Source: Candidatus Poribacteria bacterium
GTDB lineage: Bacteria; Poribacteria; WGA-4E; JAJDTR01
Assembly: GCA_965204085.1 (NCBI GenBank)
Contig: CBDBEE010000003.1
Coordinates: 387,240-451,239, forward strand
Direction: 5' to 3'
DNA length: 64,000 nucleotides
Shown: positions 13,277-52,536 of the stretch, piece by piece
How positions within the stretch are numbered: the first letter of the stretch is position 1
Layout: each line of letters opens with the position of its first letter
The notes under the pieces: model-generated
The model's database searches: none
What the model saw: only the letters and a program-made list of their open reading frames with translations
What the model was told of the DNA's origin: nothing
Made by a program: the position numbers and the translations under genes

Positions 13277-14518
13277 TTACTTCGCTTTGGACGGCGTTGC
13301 CGTGCCACCATCCTTTTCTATGATAGCCAATCTCACCATTCGCCATTCTACGCTATTGGCCCCAACGTCAGACCATTCCCCTGAAAAACCCATCATGACG
13401 AAATCTTCGTCACCCCAGTCGTCATCCTTCGGTTCATGGGGTGCCCAGTTAGTGAAGGTGAGCGGCTCGCCGCTCTCCCAAACCCATTCACCCTCTGTTG
13501 CGTAATCGGTCAATCCAATCCAATAGGGGCGATGCCCAAAGATATCTGAGAGCCACTTCTGCTCTGTGGCATCGTTAATCGTGACCAGATGTGCACTTTC
13601 GGCGACAGCTTGAATATTCGCATCGTCCCAGCTATTGCATCGAATTTTCTTGTAAGCGTTCCCGGTTTCCGGATTCACCACCCACGCTGCCTCGTCGCCG
13701 GGAACAGATGATGTCGACGCTTCTGCCGAGACTTCGATTCGACCAGTGGGGACATCAGGGGAAATTGGTTCACTATCAAACGTGAATACTAAATCCCCTT
13801 TATTTTCCCCTTCTCTTAATAGGAACGGTTCCGCTGTCGCCGAAAGCCCTTGATAATTCACCGTCACCGTGTAGATTGCCGTCTCATCCACATGGTACAT
13901 AAAGTAGCCGTCGGCGTCCGTCTCGCTAGAGGAACTTGAGCTACCACTCCCCATCCCGTCGGGCGAACGACGTCTTGCACTGATTTGAATTCTTGCACTA
14001 ACAAGGGGTGTTCCATCGGCGAACACGATTCTCCCCCGAATATGCTGACGTGACTTCACTCTGATTTCAACGTTCTCGACGTGCGTATCCGGTTTTATGA
14101 CAACCGCTACTCCCCCAAACGGCGACGGTACATGTTGATGCACTGTCAACGCTCCGACTTTCATGGATACGATTTCGTGACTAGCCGTCGACTCGTGTTC
14201 AGACAGGGTATGGGATGCTAATCGATACTTCACTGAGCGAATGTTGTGAATGGAAAAACGCCCCATTTTGTCAGTGCGCGACACAAAAATCGTAATTTCT
14301 TCTTGATGCTCCGAGTCACTAATAGTGTCAGCAGAAATATTTCCTGATTCAGACGGCATCGGTTCAAGGGTTAACCCGAATCCGGGCACCGGGTTCCCTT
14401 CCATATCGACAACACGACCGGATAAGGTAGACGTACCCTCCACAACCAACCCACGTTGCGGCGCAATGAAGAGAAGAACAATGACTGTGACTACAAGTGT
14501 GCAGCATAAACGGTTCAT
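13277..14518 (-). CDS. secreted protein with an N-terminal CarboxypepD_reg-like domain and a C-terminal C-type-lectin-like domain (CTLD)
   Basis: ATG at 14518 with a GGAGG Shine-Dalgarno sequence and a signal peptide. STLSGRVVDMEGNPVPGF matches the CarboxypepD_reg type. The C-terminus has the CTLD hallmarks WIGLTD...EGEWVW...TNWAPHEP...EDFVMM...GEWSDV (an EPN/WND-like Ca2+ and sugar site) but lacks the canonical disulfide cysteines. Confidence 0.65.
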   Translation of the reverse strand: MNRLCCTLVVTVIVLLFIAPQRGLVVEGTSTLSGRVVDMEGNPVPGFGLTLEPMPSESGNISADTISDSEHQEEITIFVSRTDKMGRFSIHNIRSVKYRLASHTLSEHESTASHEIVSMKVGALTVHQHVPSPFGGVAVVIKPDTHVENVEIRVKSRQHIRGRIVFADGTPLVSARIQISARRRSPDGMGSGSSSSSSETDADGYFMYHVDETAIYTVTVNYQGLSATAEPFLLREGENKGDLVFTFDSEPISPDVPTGRIEVSAEASTSSVPGDEAAWVVNPETGNAYKKIRCNSWDDANIQAVAESAHLVTINDATEQKWLSDIFGHRPYWIGLTDYATEGEWVWESGEPLTFTNWAPHEPKDDDWGDEDFVMMGFSGEWSDVGANSVEWRMVRLAIIEKDGGTATPSKAK

Positions 14519-14589
14519 GGTAATGTCCTCCGCTGCGTTATTGGCTTTGAGAAACTTAATCTACAACCACTGTAGGTCGGGCTTCTATA

Positions 14590-15080
14590 CTTCACGCTGC
14601 TAGAAGTTGCGTGTTTCCAAGGGATCCTATCCCGATGGCGATAGATTCCCGTACCACAATCTGTTAGATTGTGATCGCATCTGTGCGACGAAAGATTCCT
14701 CTGTCATGCTATCTGTGCCGGTAAAGCGTCCAAATCCGCTTGTAGAAGCGATCAAACGAGTGGTTAACGAGTAAGATCTTCTATCGCCTTGGGATCCCTA
14801 TCGCACTCGCTATACGCTCGCTTGATCTATTCGGTCAGTTAATCGATAGAGATCCCTCTCCGAATCGCGACCTGCTGGTGCTGGGTAAGCCCTATTACAA
14901 ACCAGTATTGCTGAGAAAACAAGCGCAATATTACGCAACGCATGGTATAGTCCGACTCTACGAGAGATACCACTTAGTCAAACCTAATCCGTGAAATCCT
15001 TTAACTGTTTAATCCGATCAAACGAACCAACAGTGAGTGCGATAGAGATCTTGATAGCTAGGACGATAGAGGTCCCATGT
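14590..15080. repeat. repeat-dense intergenic block, with more than 6 degenerate copies of a ~38-bp unit GATCAAGCGACTGAWTAAGGAGCGCGATAGAGATCC plus AATCCGT heptamer runs
   Basis: Copies of the unit also occur at 28736, 34918, 36571, 56405/56456, 58270 and 59620-59700 (reverse orientation). Confidence 0.6.
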
Positions 15081-15320
15081 AGCACTGTGAGACCCAACAC
15101 CAAGCTAATCTATTGTAGGGTGGGCACTGCCCACCAGTCTTTTCTAAGCGCCATCGTCCGTCTTTTTCCCAAAGGTCCGAAGCAGCACTGGCGCGTATTG
15201 TTCAAACTGCGCCTGGAAGTCGATAATTAACGATACATGTGACACAATCTGGAATGCTTCTCATTCTATCGCTGTAACGCTAATGCGAAATATCCCACAA
15301 CAGCACGGTGCCGTCATAAC
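15081..15320. repeat. ~240-bp block shared by the 3' ends and downstream flanks of the two WD40 genes, containing the REP palindrome TTGTAGG-GTGGGCACTGCCCACC (15113..15135)
   Basis: It is about 90% identical to 17525..17762. Confidence 0.8.
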
Positions 15321-17148
15321 TCCCGCTTCCTAACGTTTGGCCATCAGTGCTGAACGAAAGGCTGGTAACCGTCGATCCGTGTCCTTTGAGTGTCTGCCGA
15401 TGTGTGCCCGTCTCAGCATCCCAAAGATGAATGTGAGAGTCATTACTCCCACTAGCTATTGTACTGCTCTCTGGGTCAAAAGCGACTGCAGTGACGGCCG
15501 ATGTATGTCGCTCCAGAATCCAGCGGCTCTTCCCGGTGACAACACTCCAGATGCGGGCAGTACGATCACCGCTCCCGCTTACCAGCATGTCGCCGTCCGG
15601 GCTAAACGCAACACTAATGATGTCAGCCGTATGACCTTCCAAGGTTCGTTGATGCGTACCCGTCGCGACATCCCAGAGACGGATGGTAGTGTCGAGACTA
15701 CCACCTGCTAACATAGCGCCATCTGGACTGAACGCTAAGGTCGAGCGAGCTGGTCTGTACACGTTGTGGGTAATCTTTGACGCGTCCCACCGGAGGGTAC
15801 GCAGTACCACGCCTTTGTTGGCATTCCACAAATGAATGATGGCCTCGCCGTTCCAGCTTGCCAGAGTTGAGCCATCCGGGCTAAATGCAATGCTATGGTC
15901 TCGCCCATCATCGTTTTGCAGTGTTCGCAGGCGTCTCCCCGTCCTGACATTCCAAAGGTCTACACTGTGGTAATCACTTCCGGTCGCCAGAGTTCGACCA
16001 TCCGGACTATAGGCGATGCTGTTGGTCCGCGCAAACTCCAAACCTAAAGATTGTTCGTACGCACCTGACACTGTGTCCCACAGACGCACGGGGTTGCTCC
16101 GACTCCCGCTTGCCAGTGTTGCGCCATCGGGATTAAAAGCGAGAGTATGGACAGGCCTCATGTGTCCCATTACGGTTGCCAGCTGTGCGCCTGTAGCCGT
16201 TTTCCAAAAACGAATAGTAGCGTCCCAACTTGCACTTGCCAACCTTGAACCGTCCGGACTGAAGGTGATGTCGCTAACCCAACCTGTATGCCCTCGCAAT
16301 GTTCGCAGAAGTTTTCCCGTTGCCGCCGTCCATAATCGGACAGAATTATCGTTGTACCCGCACGCCAGAATGTTCCCATCCGGGCTGAATTCCACGCACT
16401 TGACCCCATGAGCCCAATCCTCCAGTTGGCGTATGTGATCGCCCGTTGCAACATTCCACAATCGAATACTATCGCCCCAGCTCCCGCTTGCCAGCGTCGT
16501 GCTGTCTGGGCTGAAGGCAACGCTAGTAACATTTTGGGTATGCCCTTCTAGCGTAAACAGTTTCGCACCCGTCACAGCATTCCACACATGAATGGTGTTG
16601 TCTCGGTTCCCAACTGCCAGCACGTCGCCCTTCGCGTTGAATGCGGCGTTGGTGACGTAAAACGTATCTCCTTCCAGCGTGCGTAAGTGCTCACTTGTCG
16701 TCGCATCCCAGAGACGAATGGTCTTGTCCGAACTCACACTTGCCAAAGTGCTTCCGTCCGGGCTAAACGCGATGCTCGTAACGTTAAATGTATGTCCTTC
16801 CAGTGTACGCATGTGTTTACCCGTTGCGGCATCCCACAGACGGATGGTACTATCCGAGCTTCCACTTGCTAGTATGCTGCCATCTCGGCTGAACGCAACG
16901 CTCGGAATGACTCCCGAATGTCCGGTGAGCAAGGCGACCTCCTGATGGGTCGTTGTGTCGTAAATCCATATCCCGATGCCACTGCCCACGGCAAGCCGAG
17001 TGCCGTCGGGAGAATACTGTATTTCGCTTGCGGCGCCTTTTCCGAGACGTACTTTGACCCCTTCGGGCAAACTCCACTGAGGGAATTCTTGTGATGTGCT
17101 AAGTGAGGAAAATGTGAGAAATGAAAGTGAGGCCAAGAGTATTCTCAT
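15280..17148 (-). CDS. secreted WD40-repeat protein (about 14 blades, two beta-propellers)
   Basis: The track ORF runs to 17259. An ATG at 17148 starts MRILLASLSFLTFSSLSTSQ (signal peptide). The body has about 14 repeats ending in LWD/VWN/LWN with GH dipeptides. Confidence 0.85.
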   Translation of the reverse strand: MRILLASLSFLTFSSLSTSQEFPQWSLPEGVKVRLGKGAASEIQYSPDGTRLAVGSGIGIWIYDTTTHQEVALLTGHSGVIPSVAFSRDGSILASGSSDSTIRLWDAATGKHMRTLEGHTFNVTSIAFSPDGSTLASVSSDKTIRLWDATTSEHLRTLEGDTFYVTNAAFNAKGDVLAVGNRDNTIHVWNAVTGAKLFTLEGHTQNVTSVAFSPDSTTLASGSWGDSIRLWNVATGDHIRQLEDWAHGVKCVEFSPDGNILACGYNDNSVRLWTAATGKLLRTLRGHTGWVSDITFSPDGSRLASASWDATIRFWKTATGAQLATVMGHMRPVHTLAFNPDGATLASGSRSNPVRLWDTVSGAYEQSLGLEFARTNSIAYSPDGRTLATGSDYHSVDLWNVRTGRRLRTLQNDDGRDHSIAFSPDGSTLASWNGEAIIHLWNANKGVVLRTLRWDASKITHNVYRPARSTLAFSPDGAMLAGGSLDTTIRLWDVATGTHQRTLEGHTADIISVAFSPDGDMLVSGSGDRTARIWSVVTGKSRWILERHTSAVTAVAFDPESSTIASGSNDSHIHLWDAETGTHRQTLKGHGSTVTSLSFSTDGQTLGSGSYDGTVLLWDISH

Positions 17149-17282
17149 GTACATACACCTGCGACGAATGTAAGCAACTTTCGATAAAAAATCTCGCATT
17201 GTAACGAAAACCACGCCGCGCCAACCACTTAGCCACTCGTTCCAGATTGACAAATTCACCTAATCTTCCTCTGACTATTCGG

Positions 17283-17350
17283 TATTCTTGCATTCGCTCC
17301 GGAGGAGCGGAATGTCTGTAGAACGCTTCAATCTTCTGCTCCAGAGGAGC
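17283..17350. repeat. two short hairpins, CGCTCCGGAGGAGCG-GAATGT and TGCTCCAGAGGAGCA-GCATGT, of the same family as the 50640 and 57850 tandem repeats
   Basis: Sequence inspection. Confidence 0.55.
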
Positions 17351-17524
17351 AGCATGTTTGTAAAACTAGCAAAACTTCAATTCCTACCCAGTTGTTAGTG
17401 AAGCTGAAACACTATCTATTGAACCTTGCTTATGGTGTTCAGACAACAAAACTGAGGTCGTTTGACATTATGAATGTTTTATTCAATTCGTGAGCACAAT
17501 GTTGAGCTCGTAGTTCGGGCCGAA

Positions 17525-17762
17525 CAGAGTGAAACCCAACACCAAGCTAATCTATTGTAGGGTGCGCACTGCGCACCAGCCTCTTCCAAGCGCCATCGTC
17601 CATCTTATTCTCAAAGGTCCGAAGTAGCACTGACGCGTATTGTTCAAACTGCGCCTGGAAGTCGATAATTAACGATTAACGTAACTTCATCCGGAATGCG
17701 TCTCATTCTATCGCTGTAACGCTAATGCGAAATATCCCAAAAAAGCACCGTACCGTCGTCGC
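17525..17762. repeat. second copy of the WD40 3' block; its palindrome reads GTGCGCACTGCGCAC (17555..17577), with compensatory G>C / C>G changes in the two arms
   Basis: Direct comparison with 15081..15320. Confidence 0.8.
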
Positions 17763-19602
17763 CTCCACTAACTAGCGTACCGCCATCCGAGCTAAAAACG
17801 AGGCTGTTGACCGACCTACCGTGCCCCCTCAGTGTTCGCCGATGTGCCCCCGTCCCAGCCTCCCACAGATGAATGTTGCCGTCACTGCACCCGCTAATCA
17901 CTGTGCTGCCATCTGGGGTGAAAACGACACTCATGGCACGCGCTCCCGGCGCTTCAAGGGTCTGGCGACTCGCGCCTGTCTTAGTGTCCCAGATCCGCAC
18001 GGTTCTGTCACCGCCAACGCTTGCCAGCATGTCGCCAGTAGGGCTAAAGGCGACGCTGACAATGTCCGACGCATGCCCTTCCAGTGTGTGCAGAGGAGCG
18101 TCAGTTGCCACATCCCAAAGGCGAATCGTATAGTCGCCGCTGCCACTCGCAAACATTCGTCCATCGGCGCTAAACGCGAGACTTGAGCGAATCGGTCGGT
18201 ATGTAATATGCTCGACTTCTGGGGTTTCCCAGTTAAAGGTGCGCAGTTTCGCACCTGTATTGGCATCCCACAGGGTGGCGGAACTGTCGCCATCCCCACT
18301 CGCAATGGTAGAACCGTCGGAACTAAATGCAAAGATAACATCATCTTCGACATCTTCCACCAAGGTACGTACTTCAGTGCCTGTCATAACATTCCAGAGA
18401 CTAATGGTATGATATTCGTCCCCGCCCACTAGTGTTTGACCTTCTGGGCTAAAGGTGAAATGTGATAGCCGCGACCAATCACTTTCCAACGACAGTTTGT
18501 AAGCACCTGTGGCGGTGTCCCACATGCGGATAGGAACTCGCGGACTCGCACTTGCCAGCATGTTGCCGTCCGGGCTAAGGGCGACGCTATGGATGGATTC
18601 CAAATGTCCACTCATGATTCCCAAGCGTGCGCCCGTAGCCGTTTTCCACAGACGGATGGTGGTAGCCGCACTTGCCAGCCTTGAGCCATCAGGATTGAAG
18701 GTTAGAGCAGCAACCCAATCCTGATGTCCTAGTAGCGTTCGCAGCAGTTCCCCCGTCGCCGCATCCCACAGTCGGGCGGAATTGTCGCTGTACCCGCACG
18801 CCAACGTGCTTCCATCCGGGCTGAATCCCATGCACGGGACTCCACTCTCCCAGTCCTCCAATTGACGCAAATGATTGCCCGTTGCAACATCCCACAAATG
18901 AACACTGTCACGCCAGCTAGCACTAGCCAGCATCGATCCGTCTGGGCTGAAAGCAACACTTGAAAGGTGCTCCGTATGTCCTTCCAATGTTCGCAGGTGT
19001 GTGCCTGTAGACGTATCCCACAGTGCAATGTTGTAGTTAGGGTAACTCCATGCCGCCAGCACCGAGCTATCCATGTTGAACGCGATGCCTCCGACGCTGA
19101 ACGCCTGATCTCCCTGGAGCCGTAATTCGAGAGATCGTTTCTGTTCCCCGGTTACGGCATCCCAAAAACGGACGCTAATGTCATGATCGACACTTGCGAG
19201 TGTGGCGCCATCTCGACTAAAGCTGACGCTTCTGATACTAGCGGTGTGCCCCTTCAGCGTGCCCAAATGCGCACCCGTTGAAGCATCCCACAGTCGAACA
19301 GTTTTGTTTGAACTCCCACTCGCTAGTACGCTCCCATCCGGGTTGTACGCTAAGCACCTGATGTCATCCGCATGCGCGGCGAACAAGGCGACATCCTGAC
19401 TGGTCATGGTGTCGTAAATCCAGATCCCGATACCCGTGCCTACCGCAAGCCGAGTGCCATCCGGGGAATACTCTATTTGGTTGATCTTGCCTTTTCCGAG
19501 ACGCATTGTGACCCCGTCAGGCAAGCCCCACTGGGGGAATTCTTGGGAAGCGTTAAGCGGCGAGAGCACGATGAGTAATAGTAAGGTCAAGAGTATTCTC
19601 AT
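17722..19602 (-). CDS. secreted WD40-repeat protein, paralog of 15280..17148
   Basis: An ATG at 19602 starts MRILLTLLLLIVLSPLNASQEFPQWGLPDG. The N-terminus and blade structure match the paralog. The last ~12 codons and ~200 bp downstream are nearly identical between the two copies. Confidence 0.85.
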   Translation of the reverse strand: MRILLTLLLLIVLSPLNASQEFPQWGLPDGVTMRLGKGKINQIEYSPDGTRLAVGTGIGIWIYDTMTSQDVALFAAHADDIRCLAYNPDGSVLASGSSNKTVRLWDASTGAHLGTLKGHTASIRSVSFSRDGATLASVDHDISVRFWDAVTGEQKRSLELRLQGDQAFSVGGIAFNMDSSVLAAWSYPNYNIALWDTSTGTHLRTLEGHTEHLSSVAFSPDGSMLASASWRDSVHLWDVATGNHLRQLEDWESGVPCMGFSPDGSTLACGYSDNSARLWDAATGELLRTLLGHQDWVAALTFNPDGSRLASAATTIRLWKTATGARLGIMSGHLESIHSVALSPDGNMLASASPRVPIRMWDTATGAYKLSLESDWSRLSHFTFSPEGQTLVGGDEYHTISLWNVMTGTEVRTLVEDVEDDVIFAFSSDGSTIASGDGDSSATLWDANTGAKLRTFNWETPEVEHITYRPIRSSLAFSADGRMFASGSGDYTIRLWDVATDAPLHTLEGHASDIVSVAFSPTGDMLASVGGDRTVRIWDTKTGASRQTLEAPGARAMSVVFTPDGSTVISGCSDGNIHLWEAGTGAHRRTLRGHGRSVNSLVFSSDGGTLVSGGDDGTVLFWDISH

Positions 19603-19776
19603 GTCTATACACCTGCGATAGTACAAAGATATTCTGAAATGCCCAAAATTGAGACTGTTTAATATCGTCAAAGATTCTTCTAGCTGCCGACACAACAATT
19701 ACGAAGACGCAAATCGCTCAGACGCGATGAATTATTCGGGGCGAACTCGCTTCCACGCGAATCCGTCAATCCCCGA

Positions 19777-29195: not shown

Positions 29196-30430
29196 GCCCC
29201 TATCATCAAGAACCCAAGTTCATGAAAACTTCGCGCAGCTTATCGAAGGTCGGGCGCGCGTTTCTTAAGCCTACCCCAAATTGTGGCTGTCTTGGAAGTA
29301 GGGGACACCGCTAGTGCTACCGGGTTAAAGTCGGGCTGGTAATCGATCCCATCATGATCATCGCTAAGTTGCTTAAGATATTTTCCATCTGCGGTCATCA
29401 AGTGAATCTTTGCGCCGAAGAGAAATTCATCAGAGCTCGCATATGCGATCGCCTCTCCATCGGGAGACCATGCGGGCCCCCGATGATTCTCTTGATTGTG
29501 TGTAAGCTTCTTGAGATTTTTTCCATCCACCCCCACCACATAGATGTGAAAGAATCCCGCCTCCTCGCCCCAGTATGCAATCCGTCCTCCGTCGGGAGAA
29601 AACGATGGGTGCCATTTAGGCACTAAATCGTGCGTTACCCGTTCAAGCCCCTGTCCGTCAGCGTCCATCACGTAAATTTCGTTGCCCCCATCTTTCCAAG
29701 ATACGAATGCAATCTGTCCCCCATCCGGAGACCATGATGGCTGCCTCGTTCGGTCTTCATACCTTACACGATTTCCTCCATCTGCGTCCATTACCTCGAT
29801 ATGATTTATCCCATCTTGGACGGTGAACGCAATCTTACCCCCATCTGGAGACCAGTCTGGATCCGCCTTTCTTTCCGGCCCATCTGTCAGTTTAATCAGG
29901 TTCGTACCATCGGCGTCCATGACGTAGATTTGATATTCGCCGGTTCGACGGGAAACGAATGCAATCTTCGTCCCGTCGGGAGACCAATCCGGATCCTCGT
30001 CATCCACTGGATTGTTTGACAAGTTTTCCCGGTTTCCGCCATCGGAATCCATTACATAGATTTCAAAGTTGTCAAATCCCTGGTGTGAAAAAACAATCCG
30101 TGGCCCCTGCGCGGCGAGTCCTCCTATAAACCACAACTCCGCACTTAACAGCATCACGGTTAACCCAATAAACGACACAAGTGTGCGCCTGAATCGCATT
30201 TTTTCCTCCTTGGCCGTGCCTAATATGAACAGTAAGGTAACCGGTTTTGAATGCGTGCTCAGGTACCGTTTGTACGCGCTCCTAATCCTTGCGCAATGTT
30301 CTCGGCACTGGCGATATTTTCAATGGCCCGTCCCAGTCTTCTAGCCCCATTGACATCATCACGGCTTCCCGGTGCGTTTGAGATCTCCCCAAGATATCGG
30401 CAACTTTCCGTTTGGGTTGACTGCCAATGC
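29196..30430. repeat. segmental duplication, copy 1 (about 1.23 kb; PD40 type-A gene, its upstream region, and the 3' end of the next type-B gene)
   Basis: It is about 98% identical to 32676..33910. The identity breaks down on both sides, as seen by direct comparison of the two stretches. Confidence 0.85.
29240..30199 (-). CDS. secreted TolB-like PD40 beta-propeller protein (type A, 319 aa)
   Basis: ATG at 30199 with an AGGAGG Shine-Dalgarno sequence and a signal peptide. Repeated PD40 blades follow the D-W-SPDG-x-IAF pattern. The C-terminal tail is …AVSPTSKTATIWGRLKKRAPDLR. Confidence 0.8.
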   Translation of the reverse strand: MRFRRTLVSFIGLTVMLLSAELWFIGGLAAQGPRIVFSHQGFDNFEIYVMDSDGGNRENLSNNPVDDEDPDWSPDGTKIAFVSRRTGEYQIYVMDADGTNLIKLTDGPERKADPDWSPDGGKIAFTVQDGINHIEVMDADGGNRVRYEDRTRQPSWSPDGGQIAFVSWKDGGNEIYVMDADGQGLERVTHDLVPKWHPSFSPDGGRIAYWGEEAGFFHIYVVGVDGKNLKKLTHNQENHRGPAWSPDGEAIAYASSDEFLFGAKIHLMTADGKYLKQLSDDHDGIDYQPDFNPVALAVSPTSKTATIWGRLKKRAPDLR

Positions 30431-31348
30431 ACCTTGCGGCCAAGAGGGATCTTTGTTATCAATACCGGGAGGAGTCTTCGTGAGTTTGACGGCGTTCCTC
30501 CCGTTGGTGTCCATCAAATAAATATTAGAATCTCCGCCGCGGTGCGACACATAGGCGATTTTCTTCCCATCCAGAACATAGACTGGTGACGTGCTGCGAC
30601 CGTCTTCCGTAAGCTGCTCTAACTCTTTCCCGTCAGTGGTAATCGCGAAAATGTCATCACGCGTGCGATCAGGGAAGCGGCGCCGCGAGTGGAAAACAAT
30701 CTTCTTGCCATCTGGCGACCAAGTAGGAAAGAAACTGTCCGTGAGGTCGCTGTCGCCGGTGAGATTACGCCTTCCCGTTCCATCTGCATTCATCACGAAG
30801 ATGTGAGCGGGATCAAAGTCGTCGAAAGGGGCGCCGACAAACGCAATCTTACTTCCATCTGGTGACCAACTCGGTACAACATCGTCCATCTTGTGTTCTG
30901 TCAAATTTATCTCATTTTCTCCATTGGCGTCCATCACGTAGATTTCCGAGTTGCGGACGTGAAAACGGGAAGATGAAAAGGCAATCCTCGTGCCATCCGG
31001 CGACCAAGTAGCGCGGCTGTCAAAAAAATTGTCATGGGTGAGTCTTACCACGTTATTGCCATCACTGTCCATCACATACAAGTCCTGTGTAACGCCGCGC
31101 TCTGATGTGAACGCAATCCTTCTCCCATCCGGCGAGCAAGCGGGATATTCATCGGATGCAGGGTGGTCGGTGAGTTGGAGGAGATTGTCTCCATTTACGT
31201 CCATGGAGTAAATGTCCCAGTCGCCGTCACGATTCGATGCAAAGACGATTCTCGGTTCGAACGTCTGCGCGGTGCTGTTAGAAGTAACTATTAACGCCAA
31301 TAGCAGTAGAAACAGGCATTTTCTCAAAAATGGGCTGATTTTAATCAC
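30359..31348 (-). CDS. secreted TolB-like PD40 beta-propeller protein (type B, 329 aa)
   Basis: GTG start at 31348 with a GGAGAA Shine-Dalgarno sequence and a signal peptide (CLFLLLLALIVTSNSTAQ). PD40 blades are present. The C-terminal tail is …AVNPNGKLPISWGDLKRTGKP. Confidence 0.75.
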   Translation of the reverse strand: MIKISPFLRKCLFLLLLALIVTSNSTAQTFEPRIVFASNRDGDWDIYSMDVNGDNLLQLTDHPASDEYPACSPDGRRIAFTSERGVTQDLYVMDSDGNNVVRLTHDNFFDSRATWSPDGTRIAFSSSRFHVRNSEIYVMDANGENEINLTEHKMDDVVPSWSPDGSKIAFVGAPFDDFDPAHIFVMNADGTGRRNLTGDSDLTDSFFPTWSPDGKKIVFHSRRRFPDRTRDDIFAITTDGKELEQLTEDGRSTSPVYVLDGKKIAYVSHRGGDSNIYLMDTNGRNAVKLTKTPPGIDNKDPSWPQGALAVNPNGKLPISWGDLKRTGKP

Positions 31349-31443
31349 CGGTCATATTCTCCTTTTTCGGGTTCTACGCTTTTAGACTATTCTCTAAATC
31401 CCGGCAATGCTGTGTTTGGGTGTCGCCACCGAGTTCATTGACA

Positions 31444-32457
31444 TTACCGCGGGTTGCCGGTGCGTTTGATATCTCCCCAAGATGTCGGCAACTTTCCGTT
31501 TGGGCTGACTGCAAACGCACCAGCAGCAAACAACCAGGAAGGAAGTATGTTATCAACACTGGGAGGAGTTCTCGTGAGTTTGACCGCGTTCCTTCCGTTG
31601 GTGCCCATCAAATAAATATTGTAATCTCCGTCTCTTGTTGACGCAAAGGCGATTTTTGTCCCATCCGGCGAATAGGCTGGAAACCTGTTGCTACCCTCCT
31701 CCGTAAGCCTTTCTAAGTTTTCCCCTTCAGCGGTAATCGCGTAAATGTGATAATGCAGGTCTGGATCAAAGAGGTGCTGCGAGTGGAAAGCGATCATGCG
31801 TCCATCTGGCGACCAAGCAGGGGACCGATTTTTCGTTAGGTCAGTATCGCCGGTGAGATTGCGCCTTTCCTTTCCATCCGCATTCATCACGAAAATATGC
31901 TCTGGACTAAACCAGTCGCCGTCACGGGCGGATACAAACGCAATCTTGCTTCCATCTGGCGACCAACTCGGCGAATTATCTTGCCATTTGTGTTTTGTCA
32001 AATTTATCGGGTTATTTCCATTCACGTCCATCGCGTAGATTTCCTGGTTGCCAACGACCGCACGGAAAGATGAAAAGGCAATCCTCTTGCCATCCGGCGT
32101 CCAACTAGGGTCGATTTCAACAAAATTGTCATGGGTGAGTCTTACCACGTTATTGCCATCGCTGTCCATCACATAAAGGTCATGTGTAACGCCGCGTTCT
32201 GATGTGAACACAATCCTTCTCCCATCCGGCGAGCAAGCGGGAGAGTAATCGTATGCCGGGTGGTCGGTGAGTTGGAGGAGATTGTTTCCGTTTTGGTCCA
32301 TGGAGTAGATGTCCCAGTTGCCAATCCAGTTGCCATCGTGGTTTGATTGAAAGACGATTCTCGGTTCGAAGCTCTGTGCTGTACTGTCCGAAGTAACCAT
32401 TAACGCCAATAGCAGTAGAAACAGGCATTTTCTCAAAAATGGGCTGATTTTATTCAT
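31444..32457 (-). CDS. secreted TolB-like PD40 beta-propeller protein (type B, 337 aa)
   Basis: ATG at 32457 with a signal peptide and PD40 blades. The tail is …AVSPNGKLPTSWGDIKRTGNPR. Confidence 0.8.
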   Translation of the reverse strand: MNKISPFLRKCLFLLLLALMVTSDSTAQSFEPRIVFQSNHDGNWIGNWDIYSMDQNGNNLLQLTDHPAYDYSPACSPDGRRIVFTSERGVTHDLYVMDSDGNNVVRLTHDNFVEIDPSWTPDGKRIAFSSFRAVVGNQEIYAMDVNGNNPINLTKHKWQDNSPSWSPDGSKIAFVSARDGDWFSPEHIFVMNADGKERRNLTGDTDLTKNRSPAWSPDGRMIAFHSQHLFDPDLHYHIYAITAEGENLERLTEEGSNRFPAYSPDGTKIAFASTRDGDYNIYLMGTNGRNAVKLTRTPPSVDNILPSWLFAAGAFAVSPNGKLPTSWGDIKRTGNPR

Positions 32458-32675
32458 CGGTCATGTCCTCCTTATTCCGGTATTTCAATTCTATAGTCAA
32501 TGCAACTGAAAAATTCACATTCGGGGAATTTAGCAGTTCAGTTTGCAGGAGCGATCTCCGAATCGCGAAGGAGCAACTCAATACTCGCTCCGATAGAGGT
32601 TGCGTTATGAATCGTGCTACTACGAGCCGAACCCAGTAAATCCTAAATGTGAAATCCTTGATTGATGCGATAATA

Positions 32676-33910
32676 GTCCCTATCATCAAGATTCACAGTT
32701 CAAAAGACAATCTCACAAGCTATCGAAGGTCGGGCGCGCGTTTCTTAAGCCTACCCCAAATTGCGGCTGTCTTGGAAATGGGTGACACAGCTAGGCCTAC
32801 CGGGCTAAAGTCGGGCTGGTAATCGATTCCATCATGATCATCGCTAAGTTGCTTAAGATATTTTCCGTCTGCGGTCATCAAGTGAATCTTTGCGCCGAAG
32901 AGAACTGCATCAGAACTCGCATATGCGATCGCCCCTCCATCGGGAGACCATGCGGGCCCCCGATGATTCTTTTCATTGGGCGTAAGCCTCTTGAGGTTTT
33001 TTCCATCCACACCCACCACATAGATGTGAAAGAATCCCGCCTCCTCGCCCCAGTATGCAATCCGTCCTCCGTCGGGAGAAAACGATGGGTGCCATTTAGG
33101 CACTAAATCGTGCGTTACCCGTTCAAGCCCCTGTCCGTCAGCGTCCATCACGTAAATTTCGTTGCCCCCATCTTTCCAAGATACGAATGCAATCTGTCCC
33201 CCATCCGGAGACCATGATGGCTGCCTCGTTCGGTCTTCATACCTTACACGATTTCCTCCATCTGCGTCCATTACCTCGATATGATTTATCCCATCTTGGA
33301 CGGTGAACGCAATCTTACCCCCATCTGGAGACCAGTCTGGATCCGCCTTTCTTTCCGGCCCATCTGTCAGTTTAATCAGGTTCGTACCATCGGCGTCCAT
33401 GACGTAGATTTGATATTCGCCGGTTCGACGGGAAACGAATGCAATCTTCGTCCCGTCGGGAGACCAATCCGGATCCTCGTCATCCACTGGATTGTTTGAC
33501 AAGTTTTCCCGGTTTCCGCCATCGGAATCCATTACATAGATTTCAAAGTTGTCAAATCCCTGGTGTGAAAAAACAATCCGTGGCCCCTGCGCGGCGAGTC
33601 CTCCTATAAACCACAACTCCGCACTTAACAGCATCACGGTTAACCCAATAAACGACACAAGTGTGCGCCTGAATCGCATTTTTTCCTCCTTGGCCGTGCC
33701 TAATATGAACAGTAAGGTAACCGGTTTTGAATGCGTGCTCAGGTACCGTTTGTACGCGCTCCTAATCCTTGCGCAATGTTCTCGGCACTGGCGATATTTT
33801 CAATGGCCCGTCCCAGTCTTCTAGCCCCATTGACATCATCACGGCTTCCCGGTGCGTTTGATATCTCCCCAAGATGTCGGCAACTTTCCGTTTGGGTTGA
33901 CTGCAAATGC
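32676..33910. repeat. segmental duplication, copy 2
   Basis: See copy 1. Confidence 0.85.
32720..33679 (-). CDS. secreted TolB-like PD40 beta-propeller protein (type A), a near-identical duplicate of 29240..30199
   Basis: It is about 98% identical to the copy at 29240..30199 at the nucleotide level, including flanks. The tail is …AVSPISKTAAIWGRLKKRAPDLR. Confidence 0.8.
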   Translation of the reverse strand: MRFRRTLVSFIGLTVMLLSAELWFIGGLAAQGPRIVFSHQGFDNFEIYVMDSDGGNRENLSNNPVDDEDPDWSPDGTKIAFVSRRTGEYQIYVMDADGTNLIKLTDGPERKADPDWSPDGGKIAFTVQDGINHIEVMDADGGNRVRYEDRTRQPSWSPDGGQIAFVSWKDGGNEIYVMDADGQGLERVTHDLVPKWHPSFSPDGGRIAYWGEEAGFFHIYVVGVDGKNLKRLTPNEKNHRGPAWSPDGGAIAYASSDAVLFGAKIHLMTADGKYLKQLSDDHDGIDYQPDFSPVGLAVSPISKTAAIWGRLKKRAPDLR

Positions 33911-34846
33911 ACCAAGAGTCAGCCAAGAAGGATATATGTTATGTACACCGCGCGGAGTGTTCGTGAGTTTGACAGCGTTCATCCCGTCGGTATCCATCAG
34001 ATAAATATTTGAATCACCGTTACGGTGTGACACATAGGCGATTTTTGCCCCATCCGGCGAATAGGCTGGCATCCTGTTGCTGCCCTCCTCCGTAAGCTTC
34101 TCTAACTCTTCTCCTTCAGCGGTAATCGCGTAAATTTGATAACGCGGGCCTGGAGCGAAGATGTGCTGCGACTGGAACGCAATCTTGCTTCCATCTGGCG
34201 ACCAAGTAGGGGACAGATTATTCGTTAGGTCGGTATCGCCAGTGAGATTGCGCCTTTCCTTTCCATCCGCATTCATCACGAAAATATGCTGGGGAGTATC
34301 CAAGCGGCCATCACGGGTGGATGCAAACGCAATCTTGCTTCCGTCCGGCGACCAACTCGGCGTTAAATCGTGCCACTTATGTTTTGTCAAATTTATCTCA
34401 TTTGCTCCATTGGCGTCCATCACGTAGATTTCCGAGTTGCGGACGTCAAAACGCACAGATTCAAAGGCAATCCTCGTGCCATCCGGCGACCAACTAGGTC
34501 TACCTTCAATAAAATTGTCACGGGTGAGTCTTACCACGTTGTTGCCATCGCTGTCCATCACATACAGGTCATGTGTGACGCCGCGCTCTGATGTGAACGC
34601 AATCCTTCTACCGTCCGGCGAGCAAGCGAGTAACCAATCAGATCCCGGATGGTCGGTGAGATGGGCCACATTGTCTCCGTTTACGTCCATGGAGTAGATG
34701 TCCCAGTTGCCAAGCCAGTTGCCATCGTGGTTTGATGCAAAGACGATTCTCGGTTCGAAGATCTGCGCTGTGCTGTCTGAAGCAACCATTAACGCTAGTA
34801 ACAATAGAAACAGGCATCTTCTAAAAAATGGGCTGATTTTATTCAT
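33839..34846 (-). CDS. secreted TolB-like PD40 beta-propeller protein (type B, 335 aa)
   Basis: ATG at 34846 with a signal peptide and PD40 blades. The tail is …AVNPNGKLPTSWGDIKRTGKP. The last ~30 codons fall within the duplicated block. Confidence 0.8.
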   Translation of the reverse strand: MNKISPFFRRCLFLLLLALMVASDSTAQIFEPRIVFASNHDGNWLGNWDIYSMDVNGDNVAHLTDHPGSDWLLACSPDGRRIAFTSERGVTHDLYVMDSDGNNVVRLTRDNFIEGRPSWSPDGTRIAFESVRFDVRNSEIYVMDANGANEINLTKHKWHDLTPSWSPDGSKIAFASTRDGRLDTPQHIFVMNADGKERRNLTGDTDLTNNLSPTWSPDGSKIAFQSQHIFAPGPRYQIYAITAEGEELEKLTEEGSNRMPAYSPDGAKIAYVSHRNGDSNIYLMDTDGMNAVKLTNTPRGVHNIYPSWLTLGAFAVNPNGKLPTSWGDIKRTGKP

Positions 34847-35091
34847 CTGTCATTCTCTCCTTATTCGGGTTCTTTTCTTCTAGAGAATTGTCTAACCTAA
34901 GTTGCCGACATTGTAGCACGATCAAGCGACTGATTAGGGAGCGCGATAGAAATCCCATAGCGAAGGCGATAGTAAATCCCACAGGTAGCAGCAGCTCAAA
35001 TATACAAAATTGCTATGTCACCTCTTTTTCAAACAGGCTCTTATGCACTTGTCTATGGCTTGTCGTCGAACTTCAACAAAGCGGGCGTAGA

Positions 35092-36075
35092 TTATCGGAG
35101 GTTGGACGCGCGTTTCTTCACCCTGCCCCAAATTGTAGTTGTTTTGGAGATGGGGGACACAGCTAATCCGAACGAGCGAATGTCGGGCTGAGAATCATTC
35201 GCACCATCGACATTGCTAAGTTGCTTAAGATATTGTCCATCGGCCGTCATCAAGTGAATCGATGAAGGACCATCATTGTCCCAGACATAATATGCGATCC
35301 TCCGTCCGGAGACAGACCATGCAGGGCCTCCATGATTCTGTTGATTCTGTGTAAGTCTCACCCGATTTTTCCCATCTGCCCCTACCACAAATATTTGAGG
35401 GTATAATCTGTCGATGGCCACGTATGCAATCCGTTTTCCGTCAGGAGAAAACGCCGGACTGTGTCCACCCCATAATTCCCGTAATTCATGCGTTACCCTT
35501 CTAAGCCCCTGTCCGTCAGCGCCTATCACGTAGATATCAGACCACCACTCCCCAGCTCTAAAGGATGAGAATGAAATCTCACGTCCATCAGGAGACCATG
35601 ACGGATCCCTCGCGTGGTTTTTAAACCTCACCCGATTATTTCCATCGGCATCCATCACGGCGATGTGAGATTCCCTTATTGCAGCCGGTTGGACCGTGAA
35701 GGCAATTTTACCCGCATCGGGAGACCAGTCTGGTGCCCACTTGCTCCGCGGTCCATCTGTCAATCTAATCGGGTTCTTTCCATCGGCGTCCATGACGTAG
35801 ATCTGATTTCCGCCGTTTCTGTCGGAAACGAATGCAATCTTCGTCCTGTCAGGAGACCAATCCGGATCGCTGTCATACGCTGGATGGTTTGTCAAGTTTT
35901 CTCGGTTTCCTCCATCAGCGTCCATTACATAGATATCAGTGTTGTCAGGTTTCGCGTAGAATGTAAAAACAATTCGATTTGTGCTGAAGGCGAACCCGCT
36001 TCTCAACCACAACTCCCCACTCAACAGCAACACCGTTAGCCCGATAAACGACACAAGCGTGCGTCCGAATCGCAT
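35092..36075 (-). CDS. secreted TolB-like PD40 beta-propeller protein (type A, about 327 aa)
   Basis: An ATG at 36075 (MRFGRTLVSFIGLTVLLLSG…) has an AGGAGG Shine-Dalgarno sequence 6 nt upstream. The track start at 36093 lacks one. The tail is …AVSPISKTTTIWGRVKKRASNLR. Confidence 0.8.
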   Translation of the reverse strand: MRFGRTLVSFIGLTVLLLSGELWLRSGFAFSTNRIVFTFYAKPDNTDIYVMDADGGNRENLTNHPAYDSDPDWSPDRTKIAFVSDRNGGNQIYVMDADGKNPIRLTDGPRSKWAPDWSPDAGKIAFTVQPAAIRESHIAVMDADGNNRVRFKNHARDPSWSPDGREISFSSFRAGEWWSDIYVIGADGQGLRRVTHELRELWGGHSPAFSPDGKRIAYVAIDRLYPQIFVVGADGKNRVRLTQNQQNHGGPAWSVSGRRIAYYVWDNDGPSSIHLMTADGQYLKQLSNVDGANDSQPDIRSFGLAVSPISKTTTIWGRVKKRASNLR

Positions 36076-36320
36076 TTTCTCCTCCTTAGTCATGGGTGTA
36101 ATGCGCAGCCCGTAGGTTGGGTTGAGCGGAGACCCTGAAAATATCCAAGAAGTCAGATTGCTTTAGAGCCTGTTTGAGAAGTACATTTGTAGGGGACGCA
36201 GATCTGCGTCCCCATACGGATCAAGTTAAGGGAGTTCGTCTAGTATTGGTGAGTTCTTCGCCGCAAAACCCTTAACTTAGTCCCCATTGGGCGAGGAGTA
36301 AATCTCAATCTCACCCCATA

Positions 36321-36478: not shown

Positions 36479-36791
36479 CAAAACGCTTAACTTGATTCCT
36501 ATGGGGTGGGCACTGCCCACCAGCCTCTAAAAGCCCCAGCGTGGGATCAAATGAGCGGATAGCGAACGATCAAATGACTGATTAAGGAAGGCGCGATAGA
36601 GATCCCATAGAGATCCACTAATCACTAGCCAGCAACGGAGCGGATAGCGACGGCGGTAGAAATCCACTAAGCACTTATCTTTAGGGTTTCCGTTTCGCTT
36701 GAAATCTCCAAATCCGAGCGAAACCCAACCCGCATTTTCCCGCTTTCTTCTTTCAACTAGCCACTGAACACTAGTCACTGGCCACTGCCTT

Positions 36792-51970: not shown

Positions 51971-52174
51971 GCTTCTGTCCTCCGTATCAATCTAATTGGT
52001 CTTGCAAAAGAAACTAATGGCCAAATTGGCGATTTCCATAATCCTAAAATTTTACAACATAACGCTACGAAATACAAGGTTTAAGCGCAAAGCAGTGACT
52101 TGTGGCCTTTGGCTATACTATGCGTTGGGTATTATTGCGCTTTCTTTCCCGGTAATTACTGTTTGTAATAGTGA

Positions 52175-52281
52175 TTGTAGGGTGGGCACTGCCCACCATC
52201 AACGCGGTCACGTTGCGCGCCCGGGGGAGCCAGCCATTTATCCCAAACTGATCGGAATGGTGGGCAGTGCCCACCCTACAA
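52175..52281. repeat. REPIN-like inverted doublet: TTGTAGGGTGGGCACTGCCCACC…(61-bp spacer)…GGTGGGCAGTGCCCACCCTACAA
   Basis: The two REPs lie in opposite orientation within the divergent intergenic region between 51970 and 52537. A third degenerate copy is at 52341-52358. Confidence 0.7.
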
Positions 52282-52536
52282 CTACTTTTAAAGGTTGGTG
52301 CGCAGGGGATTTCTATCGCCCGCGCTATCCGCTTGGTTGATCGCACCCTACAAATGTACTTTTCAAACAGGTTCTGAGGGGCTCAATAATGCGGAAGACA
52401 AGTTTGAATTTCGCATTTATTTGACGCGAACCCTGTTTTCTGTTATGCTAACCCTTGTCATTTTTCCAGCGTAATTTCCAATTATATGTACCGCAGCATG
52501 AACGAATCGCATCACCCAAAGGAGGGTATATTCCCG

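Follow-up and report, generated by a model that had tools for sequence, protein, structure and literature searches.

A GTAG-tagged REP in the probably recombined 3' flanks of two tandem WD40 genes in Poribacteria, and a likely switch of one copy between standing stem variants

The 64-kb window, by which we mean the whole stretch of poribacterial DNA that was analysed, carries two tandem genes on the minus strand, WD40-1 and WD40-2, both of which encode beta-propeller proteins. Each of them ends in a shared block that, read on the minus strand, starts in the last codons (W-D-I-S-H-stop) and stops about 30 nt beyond a short palindrome. The features on which the following analysis is based are listed here.

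15280 to 17148, minus strand: WD40-1 gene, 622 aa from the ATG at 17148, with a signal-peptide-like N-terminus
17722 to 19602, minus strand: WD40-2 gene, 626 aa from the ATG at 19602
15087 to 15297, minus strand: block copy 1, made up of the five final WD40-1 codons with the stop, a non-coding 3' flank of about 145 nt, REP 1 and a further 28 nt
17529 to 17739, minus strand: block copy 2, the equivalent unit behind WD40-2, with 91% identity to copy 1
15115 to 15135, plus strand: REP copy 1, GTAG tag and hairpin GGTGGGCACTGCCCACC, of the G-C subfamily, 145 nt downstream of the WD40-1 stop and on the strand opposite to the gene
17557 to 17577, plus strand: REP copy 2, GTAG tag and hairpin GGTGCGCACTGCGCACC, of the C-G subfamily, which is the derived state
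36501 to 36521, plus strand: REP copy 3, the same hairpin, its tag having decayed to ATGG, with the poribacterial extension AGCCTCTAAAAGCCCC after it, 271 nt downstream of a 2558-aa ORF
52177 to 52279, both strands: REPIN-like head-to-head doublet of a REP at 52177-52197 (plus) and a REP at 52259-52279 (minus), with a 61-nt spacer and a 25-bp hairpin

The two WD40 proteins are 58% identical and the DNA of their gene bodies 50-80% (in 60-nt windows), whereas the two block copies, lying at an offset of 2442, agree at 191 of 211 nt, which bears out the first-pass annotation in describing the 3' blocks as about 90% identical and well above the gene bodies. It had also drawn the last ~12 codons into the region of high identity. 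In fact 32 of these 36 nt are identical, but they encode a generic DGTVxLWD repeat motif, and the sharp rise comes only at TGGGAT, five codons before the stop, with 17 fixed differences in the 42 nt upstream. Apart from its REP, the block is an ordinary non-coding 3' flank which also exists at single-copy orthologous loci; namely L100, L121 and L123 each have a single WD40 gene followed by the same flank, the REP and 56 extra nt, while the near-identical sister strain L122 has two WD40 genes as in the window. Between the window and L122, the WD40-2 ORF differs at 5 of 1883 sites (0.3%) and block 2 by 7.8%, and such a fast divergence means that the high identity of the paralogous blocks is not a sign of constraint. 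Moreover, each of the four block copies in these two strains bears 6-8 private changes, which are clustered.

The palindrome reads GGTGGGCA-C-TGCCCACC at 15119-15135 and GGTGCGCA-C-TGCGCACC at 17561-17577, exactly as first reported together with the paired G/C swap, and the sole difference between the two is at the fifth stem pair, G-C in copy 1 versus C-G in copy 2. The hairpins of REP 1 and REP 2 have a 7-bp stem and a 3-nt loop, with DNA folding energies of -8.0 and -8.8 kcal/mol and z from -2.6 to -3.4. When 20 independent substitutions over 211 nt were simulated, 0.7% of trials gave one compensated pair without a broken pair, and 2% gave any compensated pair. Besides the WD40 flanks, the palindrome occurs at 36505, 52181 and 52259, which the first-pass annotation had missed, giving five copies of the 17-mer in the window versus 0.01 expected, all of them between long ORFs; the GTAG tag is present at four of the five, and the fifth has ATGG. 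In the doublet the tags are on the outside, and the fold of its 25-bp hairpin has a z of -7.65.

REPs (repetitive extragenic palindromes) act as single-stranded DNA hairpins that are recognised and spread by RAYTs (REP-associated tyrosine transposases), which are HUH/Y1 enzymes. With the search pattern GTAGGGTGNGCANTGCNCACC, the 21-mer of tag and hairpin was found at at least 120 loci, the matches listed being a lower bound, in Cyanobacteria, Planctomycetota, Poribacteria, Proteobacteria and others, often as inverted pairs. Pair 5 in the exact-pattern matches is G-C in 109, C-G in 35 and T-A in 4, with 6 wobbles and 5 mismatches. From a looser hairpin search (up to three substitutions, tag ignored), for which about 70 chance matches were estimated and which is mostly noise, only the subset keeping the tag was counted. 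Among 199 tagged copies, 133 keep an unchanged G-C at pair 5 and 50 have a compensated change, against 8 wobbles and 8 mismatches, while the other seven stem pairs are almost invariant with 0-1 compensated changes. This covariation across ~200 copies implies that pairing is constrained in the REP family; the larger sample, which had been proposed at first as the place where mismatches might turn out to be as common as paired changes, thus speaks for the pairing. Both pair-5 subfamilies are present in all four sampled Poribacteria genomes. These genomes hold further REP copies, several of them inside a longer composite repeat, and such copies may accordingly move as part of a larger unit.

In several respects these copies are like the GTAG-tagged REPs, BIMEs and REPINs with their RAYT (TnpA-REP) of Nunvar 2010 (PMC2817692), Bertels & Rainey 2011 (PMC3116915) and Di Nocera et al. 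2013 (PMC3733652), with an unpaired GTAG beside a short GC-rich stem-loop. The last paper gives GTAG-tagged REPs in Cyanobacteria and Planctomycetes, REPs paired head-to-head at distances of 20-100 bp, and sub-families whose stems carry alternative complementary residues. Here as well, the copies are dispersed and extragenic, one doublet is head-to-head at 61 nt, the sub-families differ by complementary stem changes, and a RAYT is bracketed by the REP in other genomes. For example in L044 (Isosphaeraceae), a PF01797 (Y1_Tnp) gene lies between inverted copies of the 21-mer, and further PF01797 genes lie next to the REP in L061 (Nostoc) and L083, altogether three of the at least 120 loci. Homologs of the L044 protein are named 'REP-associated tyrosine transposase' by NCBI, and one of them belongs to Crocosphaera XPORK-15E, which is also the source of the REP loci L028 and L049. 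There are also differences from the known systems. Classic REPs are lineage-specific whereas an identical 21-mer is here common to many phyla, the Poribacteria loci sampled, the 64-kb window included, gave no RAYT gene by tblastn with the L044 ORF as query, and several poribacterial copies sit within the composite repeat. A tblastn with an E. coli YafM query, taken as a lead only, likewise had no match in the window or the Poribacteria loci. The Poribacteria REPs would have been spread by a RAYT as elsewhere; they may be relics, and an active cognate RAYT in the genome is putative.

From its copy number, tag, doublet, cross-phylum copies and RAYT adjacency, the palindrome is a GTAG-tagged REP, a known and widespread repeat. 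A REP was among the options offered in the first-pass annotation, and it is the right one, so that what was taken as a compensatory palindrome now belongs to a known class of mobile hairpin. No paper on REPs in Poribacteria turned up in a search that was not dedicated to the question, and Poribacteria is a candidate addition to the phyla reported with GTAG REPs.

The history of the flanks is not the same as that of the genes. Flank identity is 91% between copy 1 and copy 2 and 73-81% with the single-copy loci, and the 56-nt segment of the single-copy loci is absent from both block copies. WD40-1, however, is 68-70% identical to the single-copy ortholog proteins and 58% to WD40-2. By these identity matrices the proteins place WD40-1 with the single-copy orthologs, while the flanks place copy 1 with copy 2. 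As judged from such sequence comparison, the conflict speaks for a conversion or recombination in the past and against the insertion of a mobile block, and the earlier proposal of gene conversion gains support from it as well as from the missing 56 nt. The two strains have the same seven fixed differences between their block copies, and identity is higher between orthologs (93-94%) than between paralogs (90-91%). Homogenisation therefore does not continue today, and a single old event is indicated. This is like concerted evolution, or gene conversion between tandem paralogs, in that flanks group paralogs and genes group orthologs with a derived 56-nt deletion common to the paralog flanks, but it is unlike it in being one old event. 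The high identity of the paralogous flanks would accordingly reflect a shared recombination history and not function.

As to the switch in copy 2, pair 5 is G-C in six of the seven copies at the WD40 locus, so the C-G of copy 2 is the derived state. The generic C-G element of L023, L114 and L118 matches window positions 17557-17584 at all 28 nt, and thus one conversion patch, or one hairpin template switch, could yield the paired change; the 31-mer of copy 2, GTAGGGTGCGCACTGCGCACCAGCCTCTTCC, is the sequence expected in the donor of such a patch. Position 17587, one of two changes beside the copy 2 hairpin, does not match the generic C-G element, and therefore the idea of a patch is only partly supported. 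Meanwhile the L122 ortholog of the hairpin no longer folds and bears three arm changes that are not compensated. Over the 41 nt centred on REP 2 the window and L122 show 8 differences, four per strain; those of one strain are paired and those of the other are not. Given this broken hairpin and the coexisting subfamilies, patch conversion could explain the switch without selection at the WD40 locus. The paired change is a switch between two standing REP variants, a real but ordinary observation. To call it direct evidence of selection on the stem is sound for the family, where compensated changes outnumber mismatched ones 50 to 8, and overstated for the WD40 locus, in view of the L122 hairpin and of C-G being a standing subfamily. 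In other words, the covariation is real for the REP family and is no proof of selection at the WD40 gene.

Our preferred explanation as a whole, to which we give a probability of about 0.78, is that a GTAG-tagged REP lies in recombined WD40 3' flanks and that copy 2 switched between standing subfamilies. In an ancestral Poribacteria genome, one REP would have been acquired ~145 nt downstream of a WD40 gene with a lectin gene on either side. The lineage of the window has two tandem WD40 paralogs, whose 3' flanks including the REP would be younger in their common ancestry than the gene bodies, presumably by one past gene-conversion or recombination event with its breakpoint at the stop codon, or alternatively by a duplication whose coding part was overwritten later; the direction and the mechanism of the conversion are presumptive. 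Afterwards copy 2 would have changed its stem pair 5 from the ancestral G-C to C-G, with a short conversion patch from another C-G REP or hairpin template switching as the most likely source and two selected point mutations as a less likely one.

The REP might be more than a passive passenger, that is, a local hot spot of change whose subfamilies are made by mechanism and not by selection, though we consider this unlikely. If the cause is hairpin-driven template switching, nicking by a RAYT or patch conversion between REPs, REPs would drive a rapid turnover of 3' flanks. It is rather improbable that the paired change consists of two point mutations made in place and selected on an RNA hairpin in the WD40 3' UTR, where it would block exonucleases or mark the end of the transcript. 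Such selection could account for a hairpin that follows three minus-strand genes, always in one orientation, and for a clean compensated pair that is expected in 0.7-2% of cases under independent neutral substitution; G-T wobbles also occur in the REP family, and Di Nocera et al. 2013 (PMC3733652) read them as a hint of RNA function. However, the L122 hairpin has three uncompensated changes and a lost fold beside an ORF that is 99.7% identical, the tag is mutated in the L121 copy, C-G existed as an allele beforehand, and the stem sequence is fixed across phyla beyond what pairing demands, which is better fitted by protein recognition of DNA than by a generic RNA barrier. Moreover the transcribed strand has no U-tract after the stem. 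A Rho-independent terminator would likewise have a GC-rich hairpin downstream of the gene, but no U-run follows here on the transcribed strand, the minus strand after the stem being CCCUACAAUAG; a promoter and terminator scan flagged the plus strand only, and copy 1 only. The hairpin may affect the 3' end of the WD40 mRNA.

That the identity of the block comes from function, with purifying selection acting on a structured non-coding RNA, a regulatory 3' UTR or a small ORF, seems quite improbable. One candidate structure is found around the 56-nt indel site.

15148 to 15194, minus strand: candidate 14-bp helix, 15180-15194 pairing with 15148-15164 (in copy 2, 17622-17636 with 17590-17606)

This helix is paired in 99% of cells over 7 sequences with one double change, but these seven come from no more than about three lineages. 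In RNAalifold the seven orthologs and paralogs gave a covariation term of -1.64, and we keep the helix as a weak candidate and a lead only. The folds of the whole block, with z of -0.68 and -0.63, are no better than shuffled, and between the sister strains the block diverges by 7.8% against 0.3% in the neighbouring ORF. Rfam gave no match at 14500-20000 with E <= 1, nor in the whole window at gathering scores. One minus-strand frame is open through part of the block. A small ORF or coding remnant (…IDFQAQFEQYA…DDGAWKRLVRSAHPTID, by six-frame translation) was considered and rejected, as copy 1 has an in-frame stop and the orthologs have 1-nt and 56-nt indels.

To our knowledge HetR is confined to filamentous cyanobacteria. 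A reported low-affinity HetR consensus in Anabaena contains GGTGGGCAATGCCCACC (PMC7476756, citing Videau et al. 2014), and it was the only match of a literature search for the exact palindrome sequence; still, the palindrome is very improbable as a dyad operator for a transcription factor, because the 21-mer exists in many phyla and unrelated intergenic contexts, often as doublets and near RAYT genes. The low-affinity palindrome of Anabaena PCC 7120 has the same 17 nt inside but different flanks, and the behaviour here is that of a dispersed repeat. Finally, there is hardly any chance that the whole ~200-nt block is a MITE-like mobile element inserted independently after each WD40 gene, for although a REP stands at its end and the WD40 locus is rich in insertions, the block has only two copies in the 64-kb window, starts inside an ORF, shows no terminal inverted repeats by eye, follows the single WD40 gene of L100, L121 and L123 at an unchanged position, and among the at least 120 REP loci only L100, a syntenic ortholog, carries more of it than the REP. 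The earlier suggestion of a common inserted element therefore fails for the block as a whole, which is found at the WD40 locus and nowhere else (the non-REP core had 0 matches in a scan of JGI metagenome contigs); the mobile-type repeat is only its distal ~21-45 nt.

Returning to the REP family itself, the 191-aa RAYT is 59% identical between the planctomycete and Nostoc, with an unchanged REP. By description only, it can be likened to the Group 4 RAYTs, which are common in Cyanobacteria, occur in 17 classes and evolve slowly (Bertels et al. 2017, PMC5581495). We thus have a concrete cross-phylum pair of REP and RAYT with one variable stem position. A 21-mer kept together with a slowly evolving RAYT clade over at least six phyla, in which only pair 5 varies, could point to a frozen DNA-recognition code where pair 5 is not contacted, a reading linked to the hot-spot idea and, like it, unlikely.

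The palindrome and the highly identical 3' block are both real features of the two tandem minus-strand WD40 genes, and the palindrome is a member of an already known repeat class, the GTAG-tagged REPs; selection on its stem holds for this repeat family and not for the WD40 locus, where the claim is weaker. The two genes and the palindromes in their 3' blocks (copy 1 and copy 2) are as follows.

15280..17148, minus strand: WD40-1 ORF from its ATG start, Pfam WD40
17722..19602, minus strand: WD40-2 ORF from its ATG start, Pfam WD40
15119-15135: palindrome of copy 1, GGTGGGCA-C-TGCCCACC
17561-17577: palindrome of copy 2, GGTGCGCA-C-TGCGCACC

With Pfam WD40 matches at E = 1e-123 and 6e-98, both ORFs encode multi-blade beta-propeller proteins, and the pair is flanked on both sides by paralogous genes for lectin-like proteins that have CarboxypepD_reg and Lectin_C domains. 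Several homologs of one of the lectin genes carry the label Candidatus Poribacteria at NCBI, which assigns the window to a Poribacteria genome. The first-pass annotation had claimed a highly identical 3' block with a palindrome whose stem change is compensated between the copies, and the alignment of both 3' ends and the exact palindromes bear this out: between TGGGAT, which lies five codons ahead of the stop, and a point about 30 nt past the palindrome, 191 of 211 positions are identical (91%), while the gene bodies have 50-80% DNA identity in 60-nt windows and the proteins are 58% identical. Each palindrome folds as a 7-bp stem with a 3-nt loop, the two differing at one stem pair (pair 5, G-C in copy 1 and C-G in copy 2), and when substitutions are simulated independently at the divergence seen here, a single clean compensated pair arises in 0.7% of trials. 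A pair of small palindromes that resemble each other, GCTCCGGAGGAGC and CTGCTCCAGAGGAGCAG, is present upstream of WD40-1 (17290-17360) and also in L122, the locus of a near-identical strain; the second was flagged on the plus strand by a terminator scan.

The 17-mer has five copies in the window against 0.01 expected, the further ones at 36505, 52181 and, inverted, 52259, and GTAG directly precedes four of the five. When one genome per species was searched for the pattern GTAGGGTGNGCANTGCNCACC, at least 120 loci were matched, among which Cyanobacteria, Planctomycetota, Poribacteria, several Proteobacteria classes, Thermodesulfobacteriota and others are listed and many matches are inverted doublets. 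The identical 21-nt REP, namely tag and hairpin, is common to at least six phyla, and in three loci among the matches listed it adjoins a Y1 transposase gene (REP-associated tyrosine transposase, RAYT).

52177-52279: inverted REP doublet in the window, 61-nt spacer, folds as a 25-bp hairpin (z = -7.65)
L044:3263-3838, minus strand: RAYT gene (Isosphaeraceae), 191-aa PF01797 protein, inverted REP copies on both sides
L061:7594-7998, minus strand: RAYT gene (Nostoc), product 59% identical to the L044 protein, directly beside the REP
L083: RAYT gene, partial copy, beside the REP

Proteins in the databases that are homologous to the one of L044 bear the NCBI name 'REP-associated tyrosine transposase', one of them in Crocosphaera XPORK-15E, whose genome also contributes REP loci; no RAYT gene was seen in the window or in the Poribacteria sequence available. 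Among the identities proposed for the palindrome, REP is thus the right one, given the dispersed tagged copies, the inverted doublets and the RAYT adjacency in other genomes. The family shows the hallmarks of GTAG-tagged REPs as the survey by Di Nocera et al. 2013 (PMC3733652) describes them, with Cyanobacteria and Planctomycetes among the carriers, and the RAYTs beside the REP would fit a slowly evolving RAYT group that Bertels et al. 2017 (PMC5581495) describe as frequent in Cyanobacteria and represented in many classes. The REP palindrome is also contained in GCTTATGGTGGGCAATGCCCACCATAATA, reported in PMC7476756 as the Anabaena consensus for low-affinity binding of HetR, and some 'HetR sites' may be REP copies. 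A 114-aa TTG-start ORF (51996-52340, plus strand) crosses the whole doublet of the window, and we take it to be spurious.

Counted as copies and not as independent events, the 159 exact-pattern matches have G-C (109), C-G (35), T-A (4), a wobble (6) or a mismatch (5) at pair 5, and the 199 copies that keep the tag, with at most three substitutions allowed, have there an unchanged pair (133), a compensated one (50), a wobble (8) or a mismatch (8). This larger sample, for which arm mismatches were to be weighed against paired changes, therefore indicates by its 50 compensated versus 8 mismatched copies that pairing at pair 5 is constrained across the family. Compensated changes number 0-1 at the remaining seven stem pairs of the 199 copies; outside pair 5 the stem sequence itself is fixed across phyla, a pattern more in keeping with recognition of the hairpin by a sequence-specific protein than with a generic RNA stem.

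Orthologous loci, fetched via the neighbouring lectin gene, reveal a structurally variable lectin-WD40-lectin locus, with no WD40 gene in L124, L125 and L126, one in L100, L121, L123 and L128, and two in the window and L122. The WD40-2 ORF of L122 differs from that of the window at 5 of 1883 sites, block 2 at 15 of 193 and the 41 nt around its REP at 8, and the orthologous hairpin of L122, GATGGTCAGTACCCACC, carries three changes in its arms without compensation and does not fold stably; in L121 the tag is mutated. Since G-C is found at pair 5 in six of the seven copies at the WD40 locus, C-G is derived in copy 2 of the window. The G-C and C-G subfamilies are both present in all four Poribacteria genomes sampled and 17557-17584 is identical to the generic poribacterial C-G element of L023, L114 and L118, so that the paired change may have arisen in one step. 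This step could be the conversion of a short patch by another REP, or alternatively hairpin template switching, which is known from quasi-palindrome mutagenesis; because 17587, the site of a private change close by, departs from the generic element, a one-step origin is proposed tentatively. The 'direct evidence of selection on the stem' seen in the two copies hence stands for the repeat family by the pair 5 counts, but not for the locus, in view of the decayed L122 hairpin and the standing C-G subfamily.

As for the block outside the REP, a coding sequence is rejected by in-frame stops, a 1-nt indel and a 56-nt indel. Rfam gave no match to the block, which folds no better than shuffled sequence, and no terminator was found on its transcribed strand. 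In the single-copy loci L100, L121 and L123, flank and REP have the same position as in the window, and the flanks, 73-81% identical to the window copies, carry an extra 56-nt segment absent from both window and both L122 copies. Sought in the rest of the window, in the other REP loci and in JGI metagenomes, the block was not found and is therefore a locus-specific 3' flank with the REP near its distal end; the suggested insertion of a common element fails for the block as a whole. A candidate 14-bp helix, only a lead at present, brackets the 56-nt indel site; its pairing is kept in 99% of cells, and one double change is seen (seven sequences, about three lineages).

Gene conversion, the other origin suggested for the block, proved right. 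By its WD40 protein, copy 1 belongs with the orthologs of the single-copy loci (68-70% identity), from which copy 2 stands apart (56-58%), whereas by their flanks copy 1 groups with copy 2 (91%), the 56-nt deletion being common to both, and this conflict implies that the breakpoint of a recombination or conversion event lies at the stop codon. The flanks are not being homogenised at present: both strains share seven fixed differences that tell copy 1 from copy 2, and flank identity is 93-94% for orthologs versus 90-91% for paralogs. Divergence between the sister strains is far more rapid in the flanks than in the ORFs, and the high paralog identity of the flanks does not mean constraint. Between the near-identical strains of the window and L122, 13200-21700 forms a mosaic in which stretches have 99-100% and patches 64-90% identity; 15600-16309, within WD40-1, belongs to the patches, as do portions of the two lectin genes.

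Several other repeats are observed. A second GTAG-type palindrome, GTAGAGTCGGGCT…AGCCCGACCTAC (14572-14961), uninterrupted in L121 and L122, has in its loop an insertion of about 355 nt (14591-14945) with short CTATAC/GTATAG ends and CGATAGRGATC-like motifs inside. The motif CGATAGRRATC occurs at 14793, 14844, 15040, 28761, 34944, 36594 and 52308, on both strands, intergenic and often near REPs, and also beside REPs in other Poribacteria loci, for example L005. The poribacterial REP is often inside a longer composite repeat, …TTAGAGCCTGTTTGAAAAGTACATTT-REP-AGCCTCTAAAAGCCCCAG.GGGGCG.AAGGTGT… (L005, L015, L023, L114, L118; window 36501-36620), and a third GTAG-type palindrome family of Poribacteria, GTAGGAGCGACCTCCCGGTCGCGA (L017, L126:5960-6000, L128:5400-5480), presumably resembles Pseudomonas-type REPs. 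Finally, 29193-36094 holds six tandem minus-strand ORFs; one of them, 35092..36093, was checked and encodes a PD40-type beta-propeller. Segments 3480 nt apart in this array, such as 29816-30074 and 33296-33554, are 100% identical and suggest that the duplication is very recent.
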